Below are positions 1 to 12,042 of a stretch of DNA of 64,000 nucleotides, one piece after another. Source of the stretch: Candidatus Dojkabacteria bacterium (lineage in GTDB: Bacteria; Patescibacteriota; Dojkabacteria; J137); contig JAMQHH010000005.1 in the NCBI GenBank assembly GCA_025993875.1, positions 8,183 through 72,182 on the forward strand. Direction: 5' to 3'. The notes beneath the pieces were generated by a model, which had not been told where the DNA came from, did not search any database, and was given only the letters and a program-made list of their open reading frames with translations. The translations under genes and the position numbers were made by a program. Positions within the stretch are counted from its first letter, which is position 1, and each line of letters starts with the position of its first letter.

Positions 1-120
1 TCTTTTACACTATTGGCGTTGATAAACCATACATAAATTCATTAGTACCTACTTTTGGTTATTTGTTATCAACCATGACACTTGGCGTAATTAAAAATAT
101 TTGGATTAAAATACAAAGCG

Positions 121-327
121 ATGGAAGAAAATAAATTCTACACAATCGAACAGGTAGCTGAAATGTTACAAGTTGTTTATCTGACGGTTTATCGCTGGAT
201 TCAAGATGATAAATTAAAGGCCGTTAAGGCAGGTAAACAGTATCGAATTAGGCAATCTGACTTAGATAAGTTTTTAGAAGCAAAAGATAAGTCATTTGCA
301 AAGGGTGTTGAAAATGGAGGTAAGTAA
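121..327 (+). CDS. Excisionase/AlpA-family helix-turn-helix DNA-binding protein (putative recombination directionality factor)
   Basis: 68-aa ORF. The segment YTIEQVAEMLQVVYLTVYRWIQDDKLKAVKAGKQYRIRQSDLDKFL has the look of small excisionase-family HTH proteins. It is the first gene of a recombinase-bearing module. Confidence 0.55.
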   Translation: MEENKFYTIEQVAEMLQVVYLTVYRWIQDDKLKAVKAGKQYRIRQSDLDKFLEAKDKSFAKGVENGGK

Positions 328-418
328 AAGCCAAAAACCTTTACAGGGCTTATTTGTTTAGGAATCGTCCATTTGCAAGACGCCTTGAAAATGAGTAATA
401 GTTATTACAAATAAAATT

Positions 419-943
419 ATGATTCATATAGTAATGGGTATTTCTGGAAGTGGTAAGACAACTGCTTCGAAGTATCTTGCAGAAAAGTTAGATGCTGAAA
501 TAATAAATACTGATGTACTGCATTCGCTTTTATTCCCAAATGGTGAAAGAACCGAAACAGGTGATTTTACGCCAGAACAATTAGCAGAAATATATAGGTG
601 TTTAAGACCGCTTGCTTATTATCTGTCAAAGACAAGTCCTACAAAACATATAATCTTCGAAGGTAATTTTAGATTCAAATCACAGCGAGATTTTATTACC
701 GAAATGATGAAGGCAGAAAATTTATCTTACAAAATTTTGTTTATTCAAATAGGCAACGATGCAATAGCAGAAAAGCGCATTACTAATAGGCACTTGAATG
801 AAGGTGCTCCTGATACTTACGAAGATTATTTGAAAATAAAGCAGGTATATGAAAAGCCTGATGACGCCTATATTATCGATAATTCAGACGATGTTGGTTC
901 TTTTGAAACCAAATTAGATGACTATATAAAATCTATTTCTTAA
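419..943 (+). CDS. P-loop kinase-like protein (AAA_33 / zeta-toxin-like fold)
   Basis: Walker A GISGSGKTT near the N-terminus and a lid-like RITNRH segment; 174 aa. An EEP gene follows immediately. Confidence 0.55.
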   Translation: MIHIVMGISGSGKTTASKYLAEKLDAEIINTDVLHSLLFPNGERTETGDFTPEQLAEIYRCLRPLAYYLSKTSPTKHIIFEGNFRFKSQRDFITEMMKAENLSYKILFIQIGNDAIAEKRITNRHLNEGAPDTYEDYLKIKQVYEKPDDAYIIDNSDDVGSFETKLDDYIKSIS

Positions 944-953
944 TTACAGTGTT

Positions 954-1745
954 ATGAAACTTCTAAACATAAATGTGGGCATAAAGATTAACAATACTCT
1001 GGAAGTCGGCAATTACATTAAAGAGCAAAATGCAGATTTTGTTGCAATTCAGGAAATTGTCAGGCATCTTGAAGATAGTGTCTACGATGAATTTCGTTCA
1101 AAAGCAGGTGTTGAAGAAATATTAGGTAAGTTGTACCCACACAACTTTTTTGGAGCACTTTGGGTCACCGATGCTTTTAGAAAAGGTGGTAAAGTACATC
1201 GTGACTTTGGCGGACACATCGAACAGGGTAACCAGATTTTATCGAAATATGAAATTGTAGAAGGAACTAATGAGCATTACTATAAAACATATTCTTATGC
1301 CAAAGATTGGACTAATTGGCGTGATGAAGACCACGGCAGGGCTGTTCTAATAAGTGAGTTTAATGTTAGTGGGAAAAGGTTACAAATATTAAATCTTCAC
1401 GGAATCTGGACACACGATAAACAAGGCGATAATAGAACTATTGCCGAATGTGAATATGTTCTAAAAGCTGCAAAGCGTAAAGATATACCAACAATTATTA
1501 CAGGTGACTTCAATTTATTACCAGAAACAGAATCTATAAGGATACTCAATAAGGAGTTTACTAATCTTATTTCCGAATATGGAATAACTTCAACACGTCC
1601 GCATTTTGATGATGGAACTGACAAAGGCAACCAAGTTGTTGATTATATTTTTGTGAATAACGGAATTAAGGTAAACAGCTTTGAAGTACCTGAAACGGAT
1701 GTATCTGACCATTTGCCGTTAATTTTGGATTTTGACATTAAATAA
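954..1745 (+). CDS. Endonuclease/exonuclease/phosphatase (EEP) family protein
   Basis: N-terminal ...DFVAIQEI (catalytic Glu region) and C-terminal SDHLPLILDF (EEP signature His motif). Tightly linked to the kinase-like gene upstream. Confidence 0.7.
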   Translation: MKLLNINVGIKINNTLEVGNYIKEQNADFVAIQEIVRHLEDSVYDEFRSKAGVEEILGKLYPHNFFGALWVTDAFRKGGKVHRDFGGHIEQGNQILSKYEIVEGTNEHYYKTYSYAKDWTNWRDEDHGRAVLISEFNVSGKRLQILNLHGIWTHDKQGDNRTIAECEYVLKAAKRKDIPTIITGDFNLLPETESIRILNKEFTNLISEYGITSTRPHFDDGTDKGNQVVDYIFVNNGIKVNSFEVPETDVSDHLPLILDFDIK

Positions 1746-3323
1746 ATGAAAAAAGCCATAATACTTGCCCGTGTATCAACTCCTGAACAGGAAAAGACAG
1801 GATTATCACTGGAAGACATTCAGTTACCGCAAATGCGTGAATATGCCCTTGAAAAAGGGTTTGTTGTTGATAGCGAGTATGTATTTCAAGAAACCGCCAG
1901 CCAGAAACTTAGAAAAAAGTTTGATGAAATGGTTGACTATGTCAAAAAGAGTAAAGATATACGAGCGATAATCGCATTTAGGGTTGATAGAATGACCAGA
2001 AACTACCGTGATGCTGTCGAAATGGATAATTTACGGATTGAATATCACAAAGAACTTCATTTCGTGAACGACAGATTGATGTTAGATGAAAATAGTGTCG
2101 GTCGGGATATTCAAGATTGGGACTTAAAAGTGTTTTTAGCAAAACAACATATAAACCGTTGCCAAGAAGATGCCCATAATACTCTTCAATCAAAGTTAAA
2201 GTCAGGTGGTACTTACGGTCGAGCACCTTATGGATATAGAAATATCAGTAAAGAAGAAGAAAGAAATAATCTAAATCTACCTCGTGTAGTTGTCGAGCCG
2301 TTCGAAGCAGGAATTGTTAAGAAAGTTTTTGATTGGTATACAACAGGCTCAGATTCTTATTTATCCATTGCAAATCGACTACACAAAGATTATCCAACAC
2401 AATTTCCAGTGCTAAAAACAGCCAGACGGAAAGTCGAGAATATTATAAAGAACCCTTACTATCACGGCGAACGTGAATACAAAGGTAAAATCTATCCGCA
2501 CAGATTCGAAACCATAATTCCAAAAGAAGTATTTGAATTGGCAACGGAAAAAAGAACTGGTCGAGCAAGAGTAAAGGATAAACAAAAGAAAGTCACAAAA
2601 TCAATCTATGGCGGTCTTATAAGATGTTCAGAATGTGGATGTGCATTTAGTCCAAGCCCAAATAGACATACTCGTTTAGGGCGTGAAGTTGAAAGCGATA
2701 CTTATTACTATTGCACTAATTCAAAACGACAACACGAACAAAAGCCGCCTGGAACTAATGATAAAGAATTAACTGAACAATTTGCCAAACTATTCAAATC
2801 AATAAAGATTCCACAAAAAGACTTAGACAAACTAACCAAAACACTTCGTGACTCACACGAAGGCAAGAAAGCATTTACGATTGCGGAAACACAAGAATGT
2901 CGAACACAAATAGATAAACTACAAAGACGAATTGAAAATGCTTATGAAGATAAACTTGACGGCAGTATTACTACCGAACAATATAACAAATTCCGTGAAA
3001 ACTGGACTAAGCAAAAAGAAGAATATGAAGGCAAACTGGCAAGAATTAGTAAGGCAGATAAAGAGTACTATATTACGGCATCTTACTTACTGGAATTGGC
3101 ATCTCGGAGTTATGAATTATTCTTAGGTTCTGAACCTGAACAAAAAAGGCAGATTATCACATTAACACTTCAAAACCTTACTTTGAAAGATGGAAACCTT
3201 TGCTATGATTGGGTTAAACCCTTCGACAGTATCTTCGTTTCGGCTAAAAGTCACAAATGGGGTAGATTATGGCGAGAAATACGAACTGCTCTAATGGCTC
3301 ATTATATTGATTTAGCAATATAA
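1746..3323 (+). CDS. Large serine recombinase (integrase)
   Basis: N-terminal resolvase catalytic region AIILARVSTPEQ with Ser nucleophile, a recombinase domain, the Cys-rich zinc ribbon CSECGCAF...YYYCTN and a C-terminal coiled coil; 525 aa. Its last ~12 codons overlap a degenerate copy of the tRNA-His 3' end (3255-3286). Confidence 0.9.
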   Translation: MKKAIILARVSTPEQEKTGLSLEDIQLPQMREYALEKGFVVDSEYVFQETASQKLRKKFDEMVDYVKKSKDIRAIIAFRVDRMTRNYRDAVEMDNLRIEYHKELHFVNDRLMLDENSVGRDIQDWDLKVFLAKQHINRCQEDAHNTLQSKLKSGGTYGRAPYGYRNISKEEERNNLNLPRVVVEPFEAGIVKKVFDWYTTGSDSYLSIANRLHKDYPTQFPVLKTARRKVENIIKNPYYHGEREYKGKIYPHRFETIIPKEVFELATEKRTGRARVKDKQKKVTKSIYGGLIRCSECGCAFSPSPNRHTRLGREVESDTYYYCTNSKRQHEQKPPGTNDKELTEQFAKLFKSIKIPQKDLDKLTKTLRDSHEGKKAFTIAETQECRTQIDKLQRRIENAYEDKLDGSITTEQYNKFRENWTKQKEEYEGKLARISKADKEYYITASYLLELASRSYELFLGSEPEQKRQIITLTLQNLTLKDGNLCYDWVKPFDSIFVSAKSHKWGRLWREIRTALMAHYIDLAI

Positions 3324-3336
3324 TCTACTCCATAAA

Positions 3337-3786
3337 TCAATGGGTTAATTCTTTATCAGGCCAGGGATAAGGCATAAGTTCTGATATTGGAACTTGTTTT
3401 ATCTTACCTTCTTCTTCAATAATTATAACCGTGTCAATTTTGGACCTTATGCTACTTTCCCAGACTAGTTGTTTGCAGTTATGACAATTTGGTCCAGTCA
3501 TAGCTACTATCCGAGTTTCTCCATGCTGGGCTGCTCTTGCCAAAGCTACTGCCTCACTGTGCATAGTAGTATTGTGAGTATCAGACTTGTAAGAAGCACC
3601 TGTTATTACTGTACCTTTGTCTGTAAGAAGTGCAACTGCAAAGCCACTATTATTTTCAGGGAAAGTGAACTGTAGAGCCTTATCACCTTCATTCAATAAT
3701 AATTTGCAGGTTTCTTCATCTAGCTCATAAACCAAGAAACCATCATCTTTTTGCTTTGGTTCAGTTAATTTTATTTGTTGAAACAT
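3337..3786 (-). CDS. Cytidine/deoxycytidine deaminase-like protein (CDA fold)
   Basis: Zinc-binding motifs HSEAVA (the H/C-A-E motif) and PNCHNC (the PCxxC motif). Layout matches homotetrameric Cdd: FAVALLTDKGTVITGASYK...HSE...PNCHNCKQ. Confidence 0.7.
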   Translation of the reverse strand: MFQQIKLTEPKQKDDGFLVYELDEETCKLLLNEGDKALQFTFPENNSGFAVALLTDKGTVITGASYKSDTHNTTMHSEAVALARAAQHGETRIVAMTGPNCHNCKQLVWESSIRSKIDTVIIIEEEGKIKQVPISELMPYPWPDKELTH

Positions 3787-3859
3787 GGTTTTTGCAATAA
3801 AAGCTATATAAATTTTACTCTTTTTTCCACTTTACTTACGACCATTATACGACTATAAT

Positions 3860-4891
3860 ATGAATATGTTCAAGCCTAAATATACAATAACAAATACTCT
3901 TGCTACCAACATGCGTAAAGTTGGCGAAATTGTGGGAGAGCTTAATAGTAAAGTGCTTTCAAGCACTGTTCTAATGAATATGGAGCGAGATGCTAGAGCA
4001 TTATCTGCTCATTCTTCGACTCAAATTGAAGGTAACCCTTTACCTTTAACTGATGTGAAGAAAATCATTAAATCCAGACCTGAACATATTCGGGATACTG
4101 AACGAGAAGTCCTAAATTACAACAAAGCAATGTTGATGCTTGATGAGCAAATTAGAGCTGGGAAAGTTAGTAAATTATCTAATGAATTTATCTGCAAAAT
4201 CCAAAGTATAGTTATCGATGGTCTAATAAGTGAGTCATACAAGGGTAAATATCGAACAGAGCCAGTGTTTGTAAATGACCCAGTAAAAAGAGAGACTGTA
4301 TATTTACCACCTGATGCCAAAGATGTAGAAACTTTAATGACTGAGTTAGTTGAATTTATAAATGAAAATAAAGGCAAAATTGACCCTTTGATAATTGCAG
4401 GACTTTTTCATAAACAAGCAGTTGTGATTCACCCATTCATTGATGGAAATGGTAGAACTACGAGGTTAGTAACAAAAACCTTACTTGCCGAGCTTGGTAT
4501 CAATACTTTTCCATTATTTAGCTTTGAAAACTATTACAACAATAATGTAACTAGATATTTCCAAAATGTAGGGGTATTTGGAAATTACTACGATATTGTA
4601 GAAAGCATAGATTTTACCCAGTGGTTAGAGTACTTCACCGATGGAATTATTGATGAATTAAATAGGGTTAAATCGCAGTTTCCACAATATCAAGAGAGAC
4701 TTGAACCGCATCACAAACAAATTCTTGAATACATCAAAGAACATGGCTCAATTACAATGAGAGAGTATGAAGAAATTACAGACAGAGCAAAAGCAACAAG
4801 GATACAGGACTTTAAGAAGTTGGTAGATTTAGGGCTGATTGTGCCTGTAGGGGCTGGCAAGGCTACTTATTATATTTTGAAAAGCGAATAG
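3860..4891 (+). CDS. Fic family AMPylase, class II (intramolecular inhibitory helix) with C-terminal winged HTH
   Basis: Fic motif HPFIDGNGRTTR. The N-terminal inhibitory motif STQIEGN fits [ST]xxxE[GN]. The C-terminal ILEYIKEHGSITMREYEEITDRAKATRIQDFKKLVDLGLI is wHTH-like. Confidence 0.85.
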   Translation: MNMFKPKYTITNTLATNMRKVGEIVGELNSKVLSSTVLMNMERDARALSAHSSTQIEGNPLPLTDVKKIIKSRPEHIRDTEREVLNYNKAMLMLDEQIRAGKVSKLSNEFICKIQSIVIDGLISESYKGKYRTEPVFVNDPVKRETVYLPPDAKDVETLMTELVEFINENKGKIDPLIIAGLFHKQAVVIHPFIDGNGRTTRLVTKTLLAELGINTFPLFSFENYYNNNVTRYFQNVGVFGNYYDIVESIDFTQWLEYFTDGIIDELNRVKSQFPQYQERLEPHHKQILEYIKEHGSITMREYEEITDRAKATRIQDFKKLVDLGLIVPVGAGKATYYILKSE

Positions 4892-4916
4892 TTAAATATT
4901 TTTTACTTTTACATTT

Positions 4917-5639
4917 ATGAATGATGAAATAGAAGCAAAATTTAGAAAAGTGGATAAAGATGAAGTTCGAACAAAGTTGCAGCAAGCGGGAGCTAGTCTG
5001 TTAAAACCTGAATTTTTGCAAAAAAGAGTTGTATTCAATCTACCCACCCTAGAATCGAATCTCCCTGAAATGCCAATAATAGAAACTATTGATGGTTCTG
5101 ACTTTGTAGTTTTTGAAAACGACAAAAAAGTTAAGGTCAGCAATGGAGCTAATGCCCAACAAATAATCGAAACAATATTTTCGACCGATATTAGGGCAAG
5201 AGCTAACAAGGGTTGGCTTCGAGTTAGAGACGAGGCAACTAGGATTACAATGACCTACAAAAGACAGGATAGTTCTTTGATTGATGGAATGAGAGAAATT
5301 GAAGTTACTGTAGATGATTTTAACTTAGCTTTTGAATTATTGACCTATCTAGGATGTAAATATAAAGCATATCAAGAAACTAGACGAGAGTTATGGGAGC
5401 TTAATGGTGTGGAAGTCACTATTGATGAGTGGCCTTATTTAGAACCTTTTGTCGAGGTTGAAGGACATTCAGAAGGAGAAGTTAAAGAAGTGTCTAATAC
5501 GCTTGGTTTTGAGTGGGAAACTGCTCACTTTGGTGCAGTTGATACTTTATATTCTGAGAAATATGGCGTTACAGAAAAGCACATAAACGAAGAGACACCT
5601 GAGATTCTATTTGATAAACCAAATCCTTTCACTAAATAA
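4917..5639 (+). CDS. CYTH / triphosphate tunnel metalloenzyme domain protein (CyaB/ThTPase-like)
   Basis: N-terminal EIEAKF (ExExK signature), then LRVRDE, TYKRQ, REIEVTVDD and ELWELNGVEVTIDEWPYLEPFVEVEG, the acidic tunnel residues typical of CYTH. It has a ~50-aa insertion after strand 2. Confidence 0.65.
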   Translation: MNDEIEAKFRKVDKDEVRTKLQQAGASLLKPEFLQKRVVFNLPTLESNLPEMPIIETIDGSDFVVFENDKKVKVSNGANAQQIIETIFSTDIRARANKGWLRVRDEATRITMTYKRQDSSLIDGMREIEVTVDDFNLAFELLTYLGCKYKAYQETRRELWELNGVEVTIDEWPYLEPFVEVEGHSEGEVKEVSNTLGFEWETAHFGAVDTLYSEKYGVTEKHINEETPEILFDKPNPFTK

Positions 5640-5760
5640 TTTAATTTTTATTCTATGAACACTAAAATGAACACCACAAACGAATACTATGATAATATTA
5701 TGGTTTATTCCAGACCGTCTAAACACTCACTTTGAAAATTAAATTATTAACTAAAAAATT

Positions 5761-6798
5761 ATGAGCAAAATACGCTACCAAAATGAGAAGATGAAGCGAA
5801 AGTATTTCGATTGGGCAAAGGGAGCTTTGGGTTACTCAGATAAAACCATGAAGGTTAAAGAAGCAGCTTTGTGGAAGTACGATGAATATACAAAGAATCA
5901 GGATTACAAAAAATTTAATGCTGACTCAGCAAAGGGTTTTAAGAAATGGCTTGAAGTAACTAAGAATAAAAATACTGGTAATACACTAGATAAGACTACC
6001 CAATACAGCGTATTGCGACATGTGAACCATTTCTTTAATTGGCTATCTATGCAGTCAGGCTACAAGTCGAAAGTAACGATGGATGATGTAGCTTATTTAA
6101 GACTAAGCAAAGCAGATACCAAGATTGCAACTAGTTCTAAAATGCCAAAGTATCCAAGTCTAGCTTACATTCAGAAAATGTGTAGTTTCCCTATTGAAAA
6201 TGAGATTGACCAACGAGACAGAGCCTTAATTGCTTTTACAGCTTTATCAGGGATGCGAGATTTAGCGATTATTAGTTTACCTATTGGCTGCTTTGCTCCT
6301 GAGAAATTACTTATTGAACAAGACCCAGCACAAGGTGTAAAAACAAAGTTCTCCAAAACCATATATACAACGCTTTTTAAGTTTGATGATACCCTTCTAA
6401 ATTATATTTTGGAGTGGCATCAATTTTTAAGAAAAGAGAAACTATTTGATAATAGTAACCCACTATTCCCAGCAACTAAGATTGAACTAGCGAGTGAAAC
6501 TCAACATTCATTTATTGCAGCAGGTGTAGATAAAGTTTACTGGGCTGACACTAATCCAATGCGAAAGATGTTTCGAGCAAGAGCCGAACAGATGGGTTTG
6601 GAATACTACTCACCTCACAAGTTCAGGCATTTTGCGATTAGTGAAGCTAACAAGTATGCAATTGGGGCAGAGCAAATGAAAGCAATTAGCCAGAATGTTG
6701 GGCATGAGAGGTTAACAACAACTTTTTATGGATATGGAGCAGTTGATAACTACCGAGTCTCTGACATTATTTCAAGTATGGAGTTTAAGGGTAAGTAA
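5761..6798 (+). CDS. Tyrosine recombinase / phage-type integrase
   Basis: C-terminal catalytic signature ...RALIAFTALSGMR..., HKFRHFAIS and GHERLTTTFYGY, i.e. the R...HxxR...Y pattern; 345 aa. Confidence 0.8.
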   Translation: MSKIRYQNEKMKRKYFDWAKGALGYSDKTMKVKEAALWKYDEYTKNQDYKKFNADSAKGFKKWLEVTKNKNTGNTLDKTTQYSVLRHVNHFFNWLSMQSGYKSKVTMDDVAYLRLSKADTKIATSSKMPKYPSLAYIQKMCSFPIENEIDQRDRALIAFTALSGMRDLAIISLPIGCFAPEKLLIEQDPAQGVKTKFSKTIYTTLFKFDDTLLNYILEWHQFLRKEKLFDNSNPLFPATKIELASETQHSFIAAGVDKVYWADTNPMRKMFRARAEQMGLEYYSPHKFRHFAISEANKYAIGAEQMKAISQNVGHERLTTTFYGYGAVDNYRVSDIISSMEFKGK

Positions 6799-6851
6799 AA
6801 TTGTCGTTTATTGTAAAAGGGATATAAAGTAAAATATTTTTAACTATAAGT

Positions 6852-8555
6852 ATGAGTAAATTTATTAAAGAACACAATTTTGCCAAGAACCGCTACTTTC
6901 TCTATGCCAGAAAGTCTAGTGAATCGGAAGACCGCCAAGTCGCTTCAATATCAGCACAAGTAGAAGTAATGACTGACGTTGCAAAAGAGCTTGGTTTGAA
7001 AATTGTCGATACTCTTAGTGAGTCTTCATCAGGATTCCATGTAGGCAGAAAAGTGTTTAATGAAATGCTGGAAAGAATAGCTAATGGTGAAGCGGATGGA
7101 ATTATTGTTTGGAAACTTTCCCGTTTGTCTCGTAACCCTGATGACGCTGGCAAAATAATGGGTATGCTTCAAAGAAAAGAAGTTAAACATATTCGTACAA
7201 TTGATAGAAACTGGCTTCCAGAAGACAATGTAATGATGATGTATGTCGAGTTTGGAGTAACCAATCAATTCAGTAGGGATTTGAGTGATGACACCACTAG
7301 AGGTTTAATCAAGAAAGCAGAAAGAGGTTGGAATCCAAAGGCTTCATTGCCACTCGGCTATATGCACTCACCCTTCAAAAAAGTTGGTGACCAAGAAATA
7401 ATGCCCGACCCAGAACGATTCGAGATAATCTCAAAAGCACTAAGAAAAGTTGCTACTGGTGAAATGCGCCCACTAATTGCTTTGAATTATGCAAATAATC
7501 TTGGTTTAAGGACTAAGAAAGGTGAGGAAGTGTCTGAAAGTGTATTCTACAGAATGCTTTCCAATCCTTTTTATTGCGGAAAATTTGAATATCCAGAAGC
7601 TAGTAGTAATTGGTATGACGGTAAGCATGAAAAAGCAATTTCAGAAGAAGAATTTGAACTAATACAAAAATACAGAGGACATAAAGATAGACCAAGACCT
7701 CAAAAGCACTTATTCCCGTATACAGGAATGATGAAATGTGGTGAATGTGGATGTTCAATTGTTGTAGACCCGAAAGTGAAGGTTCAGAAGAATGGTAATG
7801 TACACAAATATTTTTATTACCGTTGCACAAAATCCAAAGGTAATTGCAGTCAGAAGTACTTAGAAGTAACCCAACTAGAAAAGCAACTAGCTGAAATGCT
7901 TGAATCCATTGAAATACCTGATTCTTTCCATCAATGGGCATTAGATGAACTAGAGCTTGATGTTCAGAAAGACATTTCAGATAGAAATGAAATTATTGAG
8001 GCTGCGCAGAAAGGCTATGATGAAGCCCTAGAACAGATTCATAATTTGGTGAAGGGATATTCAAGTGGCAAAATTCCAGAAGAGGCTTACGATTCTAACC
8101 TTGCAGAATTTAATAAATCAAAAGCGAAATACAAAAAGATTTTAGACAATACCGACGAACGCATAGCAGAATGGACAGAACAAGCTAAAAAATCGTTCAA
8201 ATTTGCTCATGAAGCTAAACAGAAGTTTGAGGATGGAGATTTGACAGTTAAGAACGATATTTTTCTAAATTTAGGAGCCAATATTGTAATTAAAGATTTA
8301 CATCTTTCAGTTGATATAGATAAACCTTTGTTAATAATCAAGAAAGCAAAGTCAAAATTTGAGAAATTGGAGTCAACCTTCTCACCTGTCAATACCCTGA
8401 ACGGTGGGGAAAATATTGAGATTTTATCGTCTAAAAAAATCATGATGGGTGATCTGTTAGACATATTCAGAACAAAATTCCCACACTTTAATATTAGCTT
8501 GGAACAGTTTAAAATCTTCTTTCAAAACTTCGGGATTCAGCCTTTAGTTATTTAA
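6852..8555 (+). CDS. Large serine recombinase (second copy, distinct C-terminus)
   Basis: YFLYARKSSESEDRQVASISAQ (Ser nucleophile region), a recombinase domain, the zinc ribbon CGECGCSIVVDP...YYRCTKSKGNCS and a coiled-coil tail; 567 aa. Confidence 0.9.
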   Translation: MSKFIKEHNFAKNRYFLYARKSSESEDRQVASISAQVEVMTDVAKELGLKIVDTLSESSSGFHVGRKVFNEMLERIANGEADGIIVWKLSRLSRNPDDAGKIMGMLQRKEVKHIRTIDRNWLPEDNVMMMYVEFGVTNQFSRDLSDDTTRGLIKKAERGWNPKASLPLGYMHSPFKKVGDQEIMPDPERFEIISKALRKVATGEMRPLIALNYANNLGLRTKKGEEVSESVFYRMLSNPFYCGKFEYPEASSNWYDGKHEKAISEEEFELIQKYRGHKDRPRPQKHLFPYTGMMKCGECGCSIVVDPKVKVQKNGNVHKYFYYRCTKSKGNCSQKYLEVTQLEKQLAEMLESIEIPDSFHQWALDELELDVQKDISDRNEIIEAAQKGYDEALEQIHNLVKGYSSGKIPEEAYDSNLAEFNKSKAKYKKILDNTDERIAEWTEQAKKSFKFAHEAKQKFEDGDLTVKNDIFLNLGANIVIKDLHLSVDIDKPLLIIKKAKSKFEKLESTFSPVNTLNGGENIEILSSKKIMMGDLLDIFRTKFPHFNISLEQFKIFFQNFGIQPLVI

Positions 8556-9157
8556 AAACAGCTCCATTCAGTCATATTACTTGAATATCCGATAATGACT
8601 GGTATGGTTTCTGGTACTAAATCAGGATTCATTGCATAAACAGTAAGTCTTAAATGTCCTTCTAAAACTACTAATTTTTTGCCATCGCTTACCAATATTA
8701 GCTTATTAAACTTTTTACCTTTTTTAAAATCTTCACTTGCATTTAAGAATCCTTCATTACTCACTTCAAATACAGTTTTTCCTTCTTTAATTGACTTAAC
8801 AGCATCTTTTGGTAATCTACTCCCACTAGTTAATTCAGTCCAATAATCATAATCTATATAGAAAACTTGATTAAGTAATTCTTCTTTAGTTATATCAACT
8901 TCATGCCATTCGATATTGGTAGGAAAACCTTCAAATAATCCTACGTTATTATCGTAATCCCTGTATATATTAAAAAGTTTTTTCCTTGTTTGATTTTCTT
9001 CTTCATTTTTAAGGTCCGCATTAGTAATGATTTCAGTATTTGCATTTAACTTATTCAAACCTTCGGTTAGCTTATTCTTGAATCTACTGGAATCTAATTC
9101 TGCCTTTAAGAACTCTAAAATCATTATATTTTCAGTTATCTTCTTTCTGTTGTTCAT
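8552..9157 (-). CDS. Hypothetical protein (201 aa, no recognisable motif)
   Basis: Clean ORF divergent from the THUMP methyltransferase. Lys/Asp-rich and non-repetitive. No catalytic motif recognised. Confidence 0.4.
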   Translation of the reverse strand: MNNRKKITENIMILEFLKAELDSSRFKNKLTEGLNKLNANTEIITNADLKNEEENQTRKKLFNIYRDYDNNVGLFEGFPTNIEWHEVDITKEELLNQVFYIDYDYWTELTSGSRLPKDAVKSIKEGKTVFEVSNEGFLNASEDFKKGKKFNKLILVSDGKKLVVLEGHLRLTVYAMNPDLVPETIPVIIGYSSNMTEWSCF

Positions 9158-9180
9158 AGTTTTTTATATAATTCAGCTAT

Positions 9181-10212
9181 ATGAAGTATATTGCATTTGT
9201 AACAAAAGGTATAGAAGCTATTTGTGCTAAAGAACTTTCTTTGATTGAAGGGCTTACTGTTATATCTATACAGTCTAAACAGTCTAAATATGTAAGGTTT
9301 GAATATACTGATAATCCCTTAAATCTAAGCCAACTTAAAACTATTGATGATGTAGCCTTACTACTTGGTGATTTTTCATTGCAGGATATAATGGATTTAA
9401 AAATTGAGCTAAATGTTGTTCAACAGGATTTCATCCCCTTTATTTCCAAATTTAGAAGCATTTCAAATAATTTCTCGGTTACTTTAAGCAATTACAAATC
9501 CAATATTAACAAAGAAGAATTAAAACTTAGTTTACAGAAATACTTTTCTAACAGATTGAATTTATCTTATTCTGAATTGGACCATTCAAACTTAGACTTT
9601 AGAATAAACATAGAAGAAGACACTGCTTTCATTTCTTTAAAACTTTTCCCCGAAAGTCTTTATAAAAGAAGCTATAACCACACAACTACTTTAGGCAGTA
9701 TACGTTCAACTATTGCTTCAGCAATCATCTTAGAAATACTTAATAAATTAAATAAAAAGCCCAATTGTTTAAGTTTAGTTGATAACTTCTGTGGAAGTGG
9801 TACTTTTCTTTGCGAAGCTAGTTTAATGGGATTTAACGTATTTGGAGGTGATATAAAACCATCTAGTGTTACACTAACTAAGAAAAACTTAGTGAAAGCT
9901 GGTTTAAAGAATGTAGAAATTAAATTGCAAAATGCAGAACAAACAAAGTGGCAAAATAATTATTTTGATATTGCTGTTAGCAATTTCCCTTGGAACAAAC
10001 AAATTAGTGAAAGTAATTTATCAAAACTTTATGATAAATCTATTAAAGAATATGCTCGAATACTCAAAAAAGATAGTTCCTTTGGATTTATAGGAATGAA
10101 ACCTGATTTAATAAAGAAGTATATTAAAATCTACTTCCCAAATTATGAAGTTGAGGAATTTAAAATTGGATATTTAGGTCAGAATCCGACGATTTTAATT
10201 TGTTATTTATAA
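9181..10212 (+). CDS. THUMP-domain class I SAM-dependent RNA (m2G-type) methyltransferase, Trm14/RlmL-like
   Basis: PESLYKRSYNHTTTLGSIRSTIASAIILEIL...LVDNFCGSGTFLCEA matches the 'RGYR...DPFCGSGT' block of THUMP methylases. Motif IV reads NFPW instead of the canonical NPPY/F. Confidence 0.7.
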   Translation: MKYIAFVTKGIEAICAKELSLIEGLTVISIQSKQSKYVRFEYTDNPLNLSQLKTIDDVALLLGDFSLQDIMDLKIELNVVQQDFIPFISKFRSISNNFSVTLSNYKSNINKEELKLSLQKYFSNRLNLSYSELDHSNLDFRINIEEDTAFISLKLFPESLYKRSYNHTTTLGSIRSTIASAIILEILNKLNKKPNCLSLVDNFCGSGTFLCEASLMGFNVFGGDIKPSSVTLTKKNLVKAGLKNVEIKLQNAEQTKWQNNYFDIAVSNFPWNKQISESNLSKLYDKSIKEYARILKKDSSFGFIGMKPDLIKKYIKIYFPNYEVEEFKIGYLGQNPTILICYL

Positions 10213-10233
10213 TTGTAGAAATACAAAATTGTG

Positions 10234-10674
10234 TTATTTAGACGATTCTAACGCTCTGTACTTTGAATCATCAAAGTCTTTATATTTGAGCTTAAGTACT
10301 TTATCTACAATTAAATACAAATCATCTAGATACTTTTGCTTCTTGATTGCCAAAGCAGTTAAAAATAAAAGTTTTTCTAAAGAAATTATTTTATAGTCCT
10401 TCATTTCTATTGCACCATCTGAAAGGTAATCATAGTCAAATTGACAAATTGTTTTCCAAATCTCAAATTCATAAACTACAATTCCAAAATCTCCCCACAA
10501 ATCTTTTAGATTACTTGGATACATTTTAGATAAGGCTTCGTAATCTTCAGTCGAAACTATTAAGTCAGTGTCCTCACCAGATTTTCTAATTTCATAATAT
10601 TCTTTTGCTTTGCCTCCTACTAGTAAAGGCTTATTTTTGAAGCTGTAGTTTAGTTTTGATAAGTCAATATTCAT
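10234..10674 (-). CDS. Putative minimal nucleotidyltransferase (MNT/pol-beta fold)-like protein
   Basis: N-terminal LLVGGKAKEYYEIRKSGEDTDLIV fits the hG[GS]xA[KR]...[ST]DxDLxV NTase signature; 146 aa. Last gene of a three-gene minus-strand cluster. Confidence 0.35.
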   Translation of the reverse strand: MNIDLSKLNYSFKNKPLLVGGKAKEYYEIRKSGEDTDLIVSTEDYEALSKMYPSNLKDLWGDFGIVVYEFEIWKTICQFDYDYLSDGAIEMKDYKIISLEKLLFLTALAIKKQKYLDDLYLIVDKVLKLKYKDFDDSKYRALESSK

Positions 10675-10677
10675 AGA

Positions 10678-11157
10678 TTAGTTATTTAATATTTCAACTT
10701 TAAAATCTTTTATATCTTTAGACTTTAATGCATCCCTAAGCTTTTGTACTATCTTAAATACAAGTTCTTTGGGAGCAAGATTTTCATCGTTAAGAAACCG
10801 TATTGTTCCTTTGCCAATAAAACCTTCGTCCGTAAAAGTGTGTCCTTCAAAAACTCTTTCTGATAAATATCTAGGTTGTAAATGTATATGAATCCTTTTA
10901 ACGTTATTCCCTTGCTGACAGTAGTTAAACCAGTCAGGATTGAAACACTCTTTTAGTAAATCCTCAGCAATTTGTCCAATTTTCTTAAAGTCTAACATCT
11001 CCTTGTCAGTTAGATGTACCATTGAACCTTCAAATGCTCTTGGAGGAAATATTATTAGCCAACCTAAGACATGTTGGTTTCCTCCAACTCCTAATGTCCA
11101 GTCATCAAATTTAGCAATATGAAGTTTTGACCATTCTTCTTTAGGTATTATCGACAT
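10678..11157 (-). CDS. HIT (histidine triad) family nucleotide hydrolase/transferase, FHIT/Hint-like
   Basis: NQHVLGWLIIFPPRAFEGSMVHLTDKEM...GNNVKRIHIHLQPRY parallels FHIT GHVLVCPLRPVERFHDL...GQTVKHVHVHVLPRK. The triad is reduced to R-x-H-x-H. Confidence 0.65.
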   Translation of the reverse strand: MSIIPKEEWSKLHIAKFDDWTLGVGGNQHVLGWLIIFPPRAFEGSMVHLTDKEMLDFKKIGQIAEDLLKECFNPDWFNYCQQGNNVKRIHIHLQPRYLSERVFEGHTFTDEGFIGKGTIRFLNDENLAPKELVFKIVQKLRDALKSKDIKDFKVEILNN

Positions 11158-11164
11158 AAATTTT

Positions 11165-11590
11165 CTACTCTAAAAGTTTAAAAAGTTTCTTAATAAATTC
11201 AGATACATCCGAGCTGCTTCGATATATTTCTTTGGCTTTAGCAATGAAATCTTGATGGTCTGGATAACCACTATCTCCTTCAGTGCCTAAAATTTGAGTA
11301 AATTCTTGAGAAGAAAGTACAACACTGTTGAATACTTCTGCAACATCCCACCATAAACCATTATTAGTATCTAAATTTTTTGTTATTTCGGGAAATTTGT
11401 CTGCAGAATATCCATAAAATATAAAGTGCATTAGTTCGTGGCTTGTTACTCTTATGCTCGAATCACATTGATAAAATATTTGGAAAGTTTTATCTTCTAA
11501 AAACCTGGGATTGCAGTTAAAAGAAGATATGTAACCTATATACTTACCTTCAGGAAATTTACAGCAATTAAAGAGTATTACGAAGGATTT
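11165..11590 (-). pseudogene. ImmA/IrrE-like HExxH metallopeptidase, 5'-truncated
   Basis: The annotated ORF starts MHFIF. The frame stays open upstream (...IFYQCDSSIRVTSHELMHFIFY...) to a stop at ~11591-11593, giving HELMH plus a downstream E..A..F..L segment typical of DUF955/ImmA peptidases. The extension has no ATG and abuts the recombinase remnant. Confidence 0.5.
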
Positions 11591-11867
11591 TTATGAAGCA
11601 AAGTGGAAAGAATACAACGCAAGACAAAGTGAAATTACTGACCAATTATCTAAGCTAACCAAATCGGATGAATCTTATTATATTACGATGGGTTATGTCT
11701 TTCAGCTTGCTCATAGTGCTTATGATTTATTTTTGTGTTCTGAAATGGAAGAAAGAAGGCAAATTATCAATTTAGTATTTCAGAACGTCAAGATGAATGG
11801 TGAAAAACTAGAATACACAATGGATGAGGCCTTTGAATTACTACGAAATTTAGACGATTGTACTATA
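11556..11867 (+). pseudogene. Serine recombinase C-terminal remnant fused to the tRNA-His 3' end (att junction)
   Basis: Translation DFYEAKWKEYNARQSEITDQLSKLTKSDESYYITMGYVFQLAHSAYDLFLCSEMEERRQIINLVFQNVKMNGEKLEYTMDEAFELL aligns with residues ~400-500 of the 1746..3323 recombinase (QYNKFRENWTKQKEEYEGKLARISKADKEYYITASYLLELASRSYELFLGSEPEQKRQIITLTLQNL...). There is no N-terminal catalytic domain, and the frame runs directly into the tRNA. Confidence 0.7.
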
Positions 11868-11944
11868 TGGGGTGGTTGGCGGGGCTCGAACCCGCGACAA
11901 CCGCTTCCACAGAGCGGCGCTCTACCAACTGAGCTACAACCACC
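11868..11944 (-). tRNA. tRNA-His (anticodon GTG), with G-1 and genomically encoded CCA
   Basis: Hand-folded cloverleaf on the minus strand: G-1, acceptor GTGGTTG/CAACCAC, D-stem GCTC/GAGC, anticodon stem CCGCT/AGCGG with loop CTGTGGA, T-arm GCGGG-TTCGAGC-CCCGC, discriminator C, then CCA. Confidence 0.85.
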
Positions 11945-12042
11945 AACACAATATCAACGTCTTGTAACAATTCTACCTAATCATTAAATTTATGTTAAAT
12001 TATAGCATTAACAGCAGCTCGTAGGCATGTTAGTATACAAAA

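Follow-up and report, generated by a model that had tools for sequence, protein, structure and literature searches.

Known integration systems at tRNA genes

Several described integration systems resemble the locus that is the subject of this report, a tandem array of mobile elements at the 3' end of a tRNA-His gene, in which the gene of a large serine recombinase (LSR), rec1, has in its last codons a short sequence shared with the tRNA. The array lies in a 64,000-nucleotide stretch of DNA, called the window throughout, from a Candidatus Dojkabacteria bacterium (GenBank assembly GCA_025993875.1, contig JAMQHH010000005.1, positions 8,183 to 72,182). Phage-type LSRs such as phiC31, Bxb1, A118/LI, TP901-1 and SPbeta have the same domain set (a resolvase catalytic domain, a recombinase domain and a zinc ribbon with a long coiled coil) and, as may be the case here, use short attachment (att) sites. 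In contrast to these enzymes, the target here is the acceptor or CCA end of a tRNA rather than a protein-coding or intergenic site, the element's own site (attP) lies inside the integrase open reading frame (ORF) so that integration swaps the C-terminal tail, and recognisable motifs occur in the right arms only. Integrases of the SSV type, found in archaeal viruses and plasmids, are tyrosine recombinases that target tRNA genes and have attP within the int gene, which integration splits into two inactive parts. The present locus is similar in that attP lies within the integrase ORF (the core overlaps the codon of W505 and the P' arm encodes the tail) and the gene is altered by integration at a tRNA. 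Unlike the SSV type, the enzymes are serine recombinases, and only the last 20-35 codons, outside the confidently folded part, are exchanged while the body stays intact.

The ssrA islands of Dehalococcoides carry the serine recombinase DsiB, are stacked in tandem and target the T-loop of the transfer-messenger RNA (tmRNA) with a 20-bp direct repeat; they also have a small partner recombinase, DsiA, and an overlap of ORF and att site is not described for them (McMurdie et al. 2011, PMC3146451). They share with the present array the tandem stacking of serine-recombinase islands at a tRNA-like gene and a recombinase gene at the edge, and relatives of rec1 occur in Dehalococcoidia. Compared by description, the two differ in their target, a tRNA acceptor end here and ssrA there, and no small DsiA-like resolvase ORF stands beside rec1 or the second LSR gene of the window, rec2. 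Tycheposons are mostly tyrosine-recombinase elements flanked by partial tRNA repeats, a minority having LSRs; neither an overlap of ORF and att site nor the att anatomy of the serine recombinases is given for them (Hackl et al., bioRxiv 10.1101/2020.12.28.424599). As in tycheposons, elements, decayed remnants, fragmented integrases and cargo pile up at one tRNA. No account of LSRs with attP inside the ORF and the tRNA CCA serving as a Trp codon was found in the literature, the coverage of which was incomplete, so that this is absence of evidence only; the integrase family is widespread and apparently undescribed.

A hybrid junction in a tandem array

Positions 3257-3263 (ATGGGGT) are very probably the crossover core of a hybrid attachment junction in a tandem array of LSR elements at the tRNA-His 3' end. 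The order of the array is E0, E1, E2, E3 and tRNA-His, and each recombinase carries the P' arm of its right-hand neighbour, which sorts the first 11.9 kb of the window into three mobile units (Table 1). The body of rec1 through W505 belongs to E1 (P arm) and its final 20 codons to E2; likewise the body of rec2 belongs to E2 and its tail from 8451 onward to E3.

The breakpoints can be read directly from related contigs (numbered with L; homologous proteins are numbered with P). A sister of E1, with a recombinase (P0001) 92% identical to rec1, is present on L024-L027. Window positions 133-3263 match L024 at 87-89% nucleotide identity in an alignment that ends exactly at 3263, the final T of ATGGGGT, past which the window and the sister sequences of L024/L025 are unrelated. 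The window's own array is carried by L108-L112, which extend it leftward (window position 1 is L108 position 6994). On L108 the left end of E1 lies at 3025, where TGGGGT is followed by the tail WGQLLDSFLNVSIDF and preceded by the C-terminal remnant of a rec2-like recombinase, which represents E0 and lies left of the window. The E1-type similarity between L108 and L024/L025 starts exactly at L108 3025 and ends exactly at 10256 (window 3263), and the flanks of the two E1 copies differ on both sides. As both ends lie at the core and the contexts are different, E1 is a discrete 7,232-bp unit.

Such elements, small integrative units of about 5-14 kb, occur in tandem also in L064, L023 and L024/L025, and several independent contigs show the array region joined without a break to the tRNA and housekeeping genes. 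Of the junctions, the window shows only attR, where the array meets the tRNA, and internal ones. Single integrated elements with both attL and attR are present in L001 (8,452 bp), L003, L007, L011 and L097, and elements bounded by a tRNA on one side and an att-core copy on the other, with an integrase at the end, are thus found. In the single elements the first 7-10 nt of the tRNA end are repeated 8.4-10.5 kb upstream, and attL consists of non-coding flank, core and a conserved native-tail frame, e.g. WGDLLDLFLNLKIDF or WLPLVDLFRNYKLEIQF; a core with a native tail at the far end is the attL expected from an attP inside the recombinase ORF. P0243, a recombinase with at least 90% identity, is joined directly to a tRNA-His elsewhere.

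A first-pass annotation of this DNA had placed an att core inside the 3' coding end of rec1 and, at that point, the junction between two elements, the left one carrying an excisionase, a kinase, an endonuclease/exonuclease/phosphatase (EEP) family protein and the recombinase. This interpretation is supported overall: 3257-3263 is an element boundary, and the order HTH_17, kinase-like AAA, EEP and rec1 recurs in L024 and L108. Corrections concern the junction, which lies at 3262-3263/3264 rather than near 3290, the nature of the tail (see below), and the number of units, since the single right-hand element proposed for about 3290-11867 consists of two units separated by a second internal junction at the rec2 3' end (ATGGGT, 8445-8450). 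The junction between two elements is real, but the array also continues left of the window, with the E1 left end and the E0 remnant.

The Trp codon and the CCA end of the tRNA

Patescibacteria-type bacteria and Chloroflexota are the sources of the best 120 rec1 homologues, the matches of which stop at about rec1 residue 505 (505-509). As a group, the relatives point to Patescibacteria/Peregrinibacteria-like bacteria. In a MAFFT alignment of 116 of them Trp occupies the W505 column in 113. Past this column 60 of the 116 continue with a peptide read antisense from a tRNA (e.g. WGGRWDSNPRP or WLPRVDSNHEP), as had been anticipated for the 3' ends of related recombinase genes, 40 end within 5 aa and the remaining 16 have different tails. 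A minus-strand tRNA is located at the match end in 20 of 22 genome loci (tRNA-His in the closest relatives and Asn, Arg-acg or Gln in the rest), and in 19 of the 22 the TGG of the tRNA CCA is the Trp codon. Together with 80 metagenome loci these yield 76 distinct junctions; in 51 the T of TGG is the precise starting base of a minus-strand tRNA (His, Asn, Arg, Gln or Trp), the remaining ones being native tails, contig ends or tRNA fragments. The genes of the relatives therefore abut a tRNA 3' end, in agreement with an att core inside the recombinase 3' coding end. In the window itself, the reading frame of the E3 recombinase remnant runs directly into tRNA-His, whose CCA (TGG 11868-11870, + strand) occupies the Trp codon position of the remnant. 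The rec2 family (n = 117) has 38 tRNA-like tails and 52 that stop within 5 aa; its junction residue is most commonly M (53), followed by W (31) and L (27), the M form corresponding to ATGGGT.

The fusion explains why many recombinases of the candidate phyla radiation and Chloroflexota end in ...WGGRWDSNPRP or ...WLPRVDSNHEP, which are antisense tRNA; the limits of islands in these small genomes can now be set with single-base precision. Likewise, the ...DSNPRP endings of many database "recombinase family proteins" are such antisense-tRNA peptides. On public contigs a 99-codon ORF is annotated at 11688-11987, which combines the recombinase C-terminal remnant with antisense tRNA-His; as the remnant here reads antisense through the tRNA, this ORF is an annotation artefact.

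Some junctions bear on the origin of the encoded CCA. In L007 (1935 versus 11456) attL has TTG whereas attR has TGG; the host tRNA-Asn apparently had no encoded CCA (it ended in ...CAA), and the element now supplies it. The ATGGGT junctions, the majority in the rec2 family, correspond to tRNA-His genes that do not encode CCA. In the window, too, the CCA of the tRNA-His gene may have come from an element. Other recombinase genes are fused to tRNA-Asn fragments, the sequence stopping either in the anticodon loop (GGTTA|C...) or once the T-arm is passed (L060 7041, L086 1949, L091 8375, L048 1859), which suggests further rearrangement or a second kind of element that inserts in the anticodon loop. 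A few Asn-type recombinases (L004 11450; P0079, P0077) have TGGCTCCCCGA in common with the tRNA and then long unrelated ORF extensions, giving 549-561 aa; these may reflect integration at, or recombination with, non-tRNA secondary sites.

The tail as a mimic of the tRNA arm

The core ATGGGGT is common to 3257-3263 and the tRNA-His 3' end at 11867-11873, occurs on the + strand of the 64 kb only at 3257 and 11867, and is also found at junctions in L001, L023, L024, L025 and L108. Both copies in the window lie exactly 58 nt past the end of a 143-nt recombinase homology (3056-3199 versus 11666-11809), and this identical spacing puts them in register. Past the core the resemblance is of a different kind. 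The two sequences on which the first-pass annotation relied are present exactly as it quoted them, and in a global alignment the exact 30-mer (3257-3286) and 25-mer (11867-11891) score better than all 5000 shuffles, with p ~0.001-0.002 for the arms alone after removal of the 7-mer, significance that is optimistic because the segments were picked post hoc. The net length difference of the two tRNA-like stretches is 5 nt rather than the 2-3 nt indel that had been allowed for.

The annotation had taken this stretch, 3255-3286, for a degenerate tRNA-His 3' end. Accordingly, it could be a decayed direct repeat, a mutated leftover of an old integration as in tyrosine-integrase islands, which by chance lies in the last codons of rec1. 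A gapped alignment to the tRNA 3' end is indeed possible, and many genomic islands are bordered by direct repeats of tRNA ends, the serine-recombinase ssrA islands of Dehalococcoides among them (PMC3146451). This explanation is nonetheless improbable. ARAGORN finds no tRNA at 3255-3286 and in Rfam, with E values up to 10 allowed, 3150-3450 has no tRNA-like match. The only 24-mer in the window within 3 mismatches of the tRNA-His 3' end is the tRNA itself, so there is no long direct repeat; nor was an exact repeat of about 15-50 bp of the tRNA 3' part found, exact identity between junctions being 7-11 bp only, e.g. ATGGGGT or TGGCTCCCC(C). Single-element attL sites have the same kind of tail right after an exact core, and the stretch is a conserved coding tail of independent elements (P0016; native rec2-family tails, e.g. 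P0160). The 5-nt difference, moreover, is a fixed register throughout the family and not a set of scattered indels. The distal arm past the core is a mimic of the tRNA, not a copy.

This register was determined by comparing position weight matrices of 23 P' arms with those of 50 distinct tRNA (B') arms. Over the first 14 positions, the proximal block, agreement is best at shift 0 (0.50, against at most 0.34 at other shifts), whereas the T-arm block (offsets 14-24) agrees best at +5 (0.485), shifts other than these two reaching at most 0.34. The +5 optimum holds in the His and non-His subsets separately, and the best T-loop-like 9-mer lies at +5 in 13 of the 23 individual P' arms and at +6 in 4. 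With the T of TGG as origin, the rec1 tail has CGAAC at offset 24-28 and tRNA-His has it at 19-23; the rec2 tail has AGAAC at 24-28, like other P' arms. In serine integrases the zinc-ribbon domain recognises a motif at bp 16-24 in attP half-sites and at 11-19 in attB (PMC3783163), and the +5 shift of the tail against the tRNA would fit this relation. By the same numbering the crossover dinucleotide is probably GT at 3262-3263 (offset about +4/+5), a placement consistent with the homology breakpoint after 3263, with a weak dyad maximum at +4.5 and with the rec2 junction, which shares only GGGT with the core.

Ownership of the exchanged tails

The tail of rec1 does not belong to the element that encodes the rest of the protein. 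It recurs as WGRLWREIRTALMAHY after P0016 in L023, and it resembles native rec2-family tails such as that of P0160, GGRLREFVRTLMFDY. From these two observations a rec2-like recombinase was predicted in the right-hand neighbour of P0016, and on the same contig (L113) there are a tyrosine recombinase with 82% protein identity to that of the window and the rec2-like P0124 fused to tRNA-His. Conversely, the tail of rec2, MGDLLDIFRTKF..., belongs to the tail type of rec1-like elements, and the E3 remnant is rec1-like. E1's own P' tail is of the other type and is the sequence WGQLLDSFLNVSIDF at the E1 left end. The same tail as in rec1 is located at the left end of the L023/L113 element with the tyrosine and rec2-like recombinases, so that 3264-3323 is a conserved coding P' arm of E2 and not the decayed tRNA copy that had been proposed. 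A cognate relation of the tail to rec1, which its presence after P0016 had allowed, was rejected once the tails of the rec2 family and the surroundings in L113 were known.

A second alternative is that rec1 and its tail form E1's own intact attP, in a free or differently integrated element whose boundary lies elsewhere. The unbroken rec1 ORF and the likeness of its tail to native attP-type tails would agree with this. We consider it very unlikely, as the P' tail of E1 is sited at the E1 left end, similarity to the sister E1 ends at 3263 with wholly different tails thereafter, the tail type of rec1 goes with rec2-type elements, and the region is continuous with tRNA and housekeeping genes. Chance, a 7-mer match amid AT-rich noise, has in its favour that unbiased local alignment of the 70-mers does no better than shuffles, and is of negligible probability given the register with upstream homology, the sole ATGGGGT pair on the + strand, the exact homology breakpoint and the comparative data from the whole family, which refute it.

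In L023 (1232-1260) a truncated rec2-like recombinase meets the TGGGGT core in another frame (...INGVSC*), while the canonical tail can still be read downstream in the Trp frame; from this mismatch, the tail is defined by the right-hand element and not by the upstream gene. Native tails are conserved over about 17 residues (...IDF.F), which exceeds a 25-bp half-site and leaves room, speculatively, for a function of the tail peptide.

Proposed mechanism and its difficulties

The array could have arisen as follows. The recombinase ORF would span the element's own attP, in which the P arm is formed by the final ~45 nt of conserved coding sequence leading up to the Trp codon; the TGG of this codon, the reverse complement of the tRNA CCA, overlaps the core, and the P' arm encodes a C-terminal tail of 20-35 residues. 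Integration would recombine attP with the tRNA acceptor end, in the case of tRNA-His with crossover at GT (tRNA nucleotides 71-72). The recombinase body would thereby be fused to antisense tRNA (attR), the element supplying the last 5-6 nt of the tRNA, and the native tail would move to the far end of the element (attL). The tail would be tRNA-like because the same protein must bind P' and B', with the first 10-14 bp in register with the tRNA and a T-loop-like TTCGAAC 5 bp further out. In a tandem array rec1 of E1 would receive the tail of E2 and rec2 of E2 that of E3, the E3 remnant being joined to tRNA-His. The candidate attP of E1 is then the rec1 P arm followed by ATGGGGT and CAGTTGTTGGACTCGTTCTTAAAC...; excision of E1 would leave the E0 remnant, TGGGGT and AGATTATGGCG, and the circle would join the rec1 body, TGGGGT and CAGTTGTTGGAC. 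Anatomy, breakpoints, the tRNA fusion across the family and tail ownership are observed; the crossover dinucleotide, the explanation of the +5 shift by protein-DNA contacts, the sequence of integration events and any present activity are inferred.

Several points weigh against this account of the junction. The local alignment of 3230-3300 with 11840-11910, which the first-pass annotation had put forward as a check, recovers only ATGGGGT, with a score of 14 compared to 12.8 +/- 2.1 for dinucleotide shuffles, and 1646 of 5000 shuffles score equal or better. A search through the remnant ORF revealed no empty site and no array without E1 or E2, all 8 of the 8 places listed sharing one context, and no excised circle was observed. 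To our knowledge canonical LSRs do not recombine attP with attL or attR, which leaves a second entry into an occupied site unexplained. The most decayed recombinase is that of the element nearest the tRNA, a poor fit to a simple order in which the newest element is next to the tRNA. Regarding the register, shift 0 is second best for the T-arm block (0.41 versus 0.485), and the column permutations (p = 0.001 for His, 0.03 for non-His and 0.004 for all) overstate independence, as the P' arms are related by descent. A dyad-symmetry search of P against P' arms gave only the weak maximum at +4.5, and no motif is shared among five B arms; with no clear mirror motif in the left arms the sites look asymmetric, and the position of the crossover rests on indirect evidence.

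The overlap of ORF and attP might, as a tentative and rather unlikely extension, serve as a built-in isoform switch, with LSRs reading the tRNA acceptor and T-arm as a B-type half-site next to almost any left arm. An excised element would make the native tail W-G-x-L-L-D-x-F-R/L-N/T...I-D-F-x-F, whereas an integrated one would carry an antisense-tRNA peptide, a tail cut after 2-3 residues, or that of its neighbour. Should the native tail favour integration or prevent excision, the recombination event would itself determine the directionality state of the enzyme. Tolerance of left arms, if true, would explain the repeated entry into occupied sites as well as the host range over Patescibacteria, Chloroflexota and Cyanobacteria. 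The family provides hundreds of natural sets of LSR, attP and attB in which attB is a universally conserved tRNA end. It thus allows a comparative test, through the 5-bp register, of how serine integrases discriminate attP from attB, and might supply integrases whose landing sites are conserved and can be predicted.

Recombinase proteins and other features of the array

By domain content, rec1 and rec2 are large serine recombinases. Both match PF00239 (E 6.6e-11 for rec1 and 1.9e-20 for rec2), and the recombinase and zinc-ribbon domains are present as matches to PF07508 and PF13408. The motif A-R-V-S11-T does not vary among 29 sequences, the alignment A1 has S11 and W505 in every member, and Cys294, Cys297 and Cys323 are likewise invariant, with Cys299 almost so. 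Among solved structures a sequence match (TP901-1 integrase, 3bvp, E 4.6e-5) was obtained for the N-terminal domain only. An AlphaFold2 model built from A1 has two long helices (357-405 and 410-461) and is confident to about residue 498, the predicted local distance difference test score (pLDDT) being below 50 for 499-525, a drop that the heterogeneous tails in A1 would cause regardless. The end of the confident part near 498 places the exchanged tail outside the folded zinc-ribbon and coiled-coil module.

Table 1. Features of the tandem array and its tRNA target in the window.
Feature	Positions	Strand	Remarks
E1, right-hand 3.26 kb	1..3263	+	Whole E1 7,232 bp; left end 3,969 bp left of window start
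HTH_17 gene of E1 (excisionase/MerR-like)	121..327	+	PF12728, E 3.5e-16
E1 cargo, AAA_33/AAA_17 kinase-like protein	419-943	+	Pfam
E1 cargo, EEP family protein	954-1745	+	Pfam
rec1, intact large serine recombinase, 525 aa	1746..3323	+	Pfam Resolvase, Recombinase, Zn_ribbon_recom
Probable recombination core ATGGGGT	3257..3263	+	TGG 3258-3260 is the W505 codon, equivalent to tRNA CCA
P' arm of E2, read as rec1 tail G-RLWREIRTALMAHYIDLAI	3264..3323	+	T-loop-like ACGAAC at 3281-3286
E2, reduced unit	3264..8450	+	Tyrosine recombinase and rec2; Pfam
E2 deaminase-like gene	3337-3786	-	Pfam
E2 Fic gene	3860-4891	+	Pfam
E2 CYTH gene	4917-5639	+	Pfam
E2 tyrosine recombinase	5761-6798	+	Pfam
rec2, second large serine recombinase, 567 aa	6852..8555	+	Pfam; BLASTP 23% identity to rec1
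Second internal junction core ATGGGT	8445..8450	+	M532 replaces Trp; GT at 8449-8450
E3, element remnant	8451..11873	+	P' tail 8451-8555, cargo, recombinase remnant
C-terminal rec1-like recombinase remnant (rec1 residues ~407-505)	11574..11867	+	BLASTP 35% identity, E 5e-16
tRNA-His (gtg), B' arm and array target	11868..11943	-	ARAGORN, encoded CCA

As can be seen in Table 1, E1 has an HTH_17 gene near the left edge of the window, the position of which is kept in the elements of L023, L024 and L108; its product may be a directionality factor or a regulator. The gene order of the kinase-like and EEP proteins is repeated in L024-L026. E3 comprises, besides the recombinase remnant, a minus-strand ORF of 201 aa, a UPF0020-type methyltransferase (9181-10212) and three small ORFs on the minus strand; the L024 array has homologues of both the 201-aa protein and the methyltransferase. 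The remnant gives tblastn matches over 11574-11882, up to 44% identity to P0021/P0024, and tblastn located no further recombinase fragment in the window.

The backbone of rec1-type elements, seen at L108 4129-7127 (left of the window) and in L023 and L024, consists of 357-aa, 66-aa, SpoVG-like 98-aa, 382-aa (no Pfam match) and 90-aa proteins and HTH_17; no replication or transfer function is recognisable among these conserved proteins. Relatives among viral contigs are limited to a single distant one, and a phage origin is therefore unsupported; no circular free form was found. The cargo is composed of small enzyme or toxin-like genes, namely cytidine-deaminase-like, Fic, CYTH, AAA kinase-like, EEP nuclease/phosphatase and methyltransferase genes (window 3337-5639 and 419-1745, L108 3134-4036, L110 910-2904). 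It varies between E1 copies that are otherwise 99% identical, L108 having a methyltransferase and L110 an S51 peptidase, a deaminase and an aldo-keto reductase. A tyrosine recombinase is found directly upstream of a rec2-type serine recombinase in three independent elements (window 5761-8555, L113 8912-11737 and L024 16309-18559).

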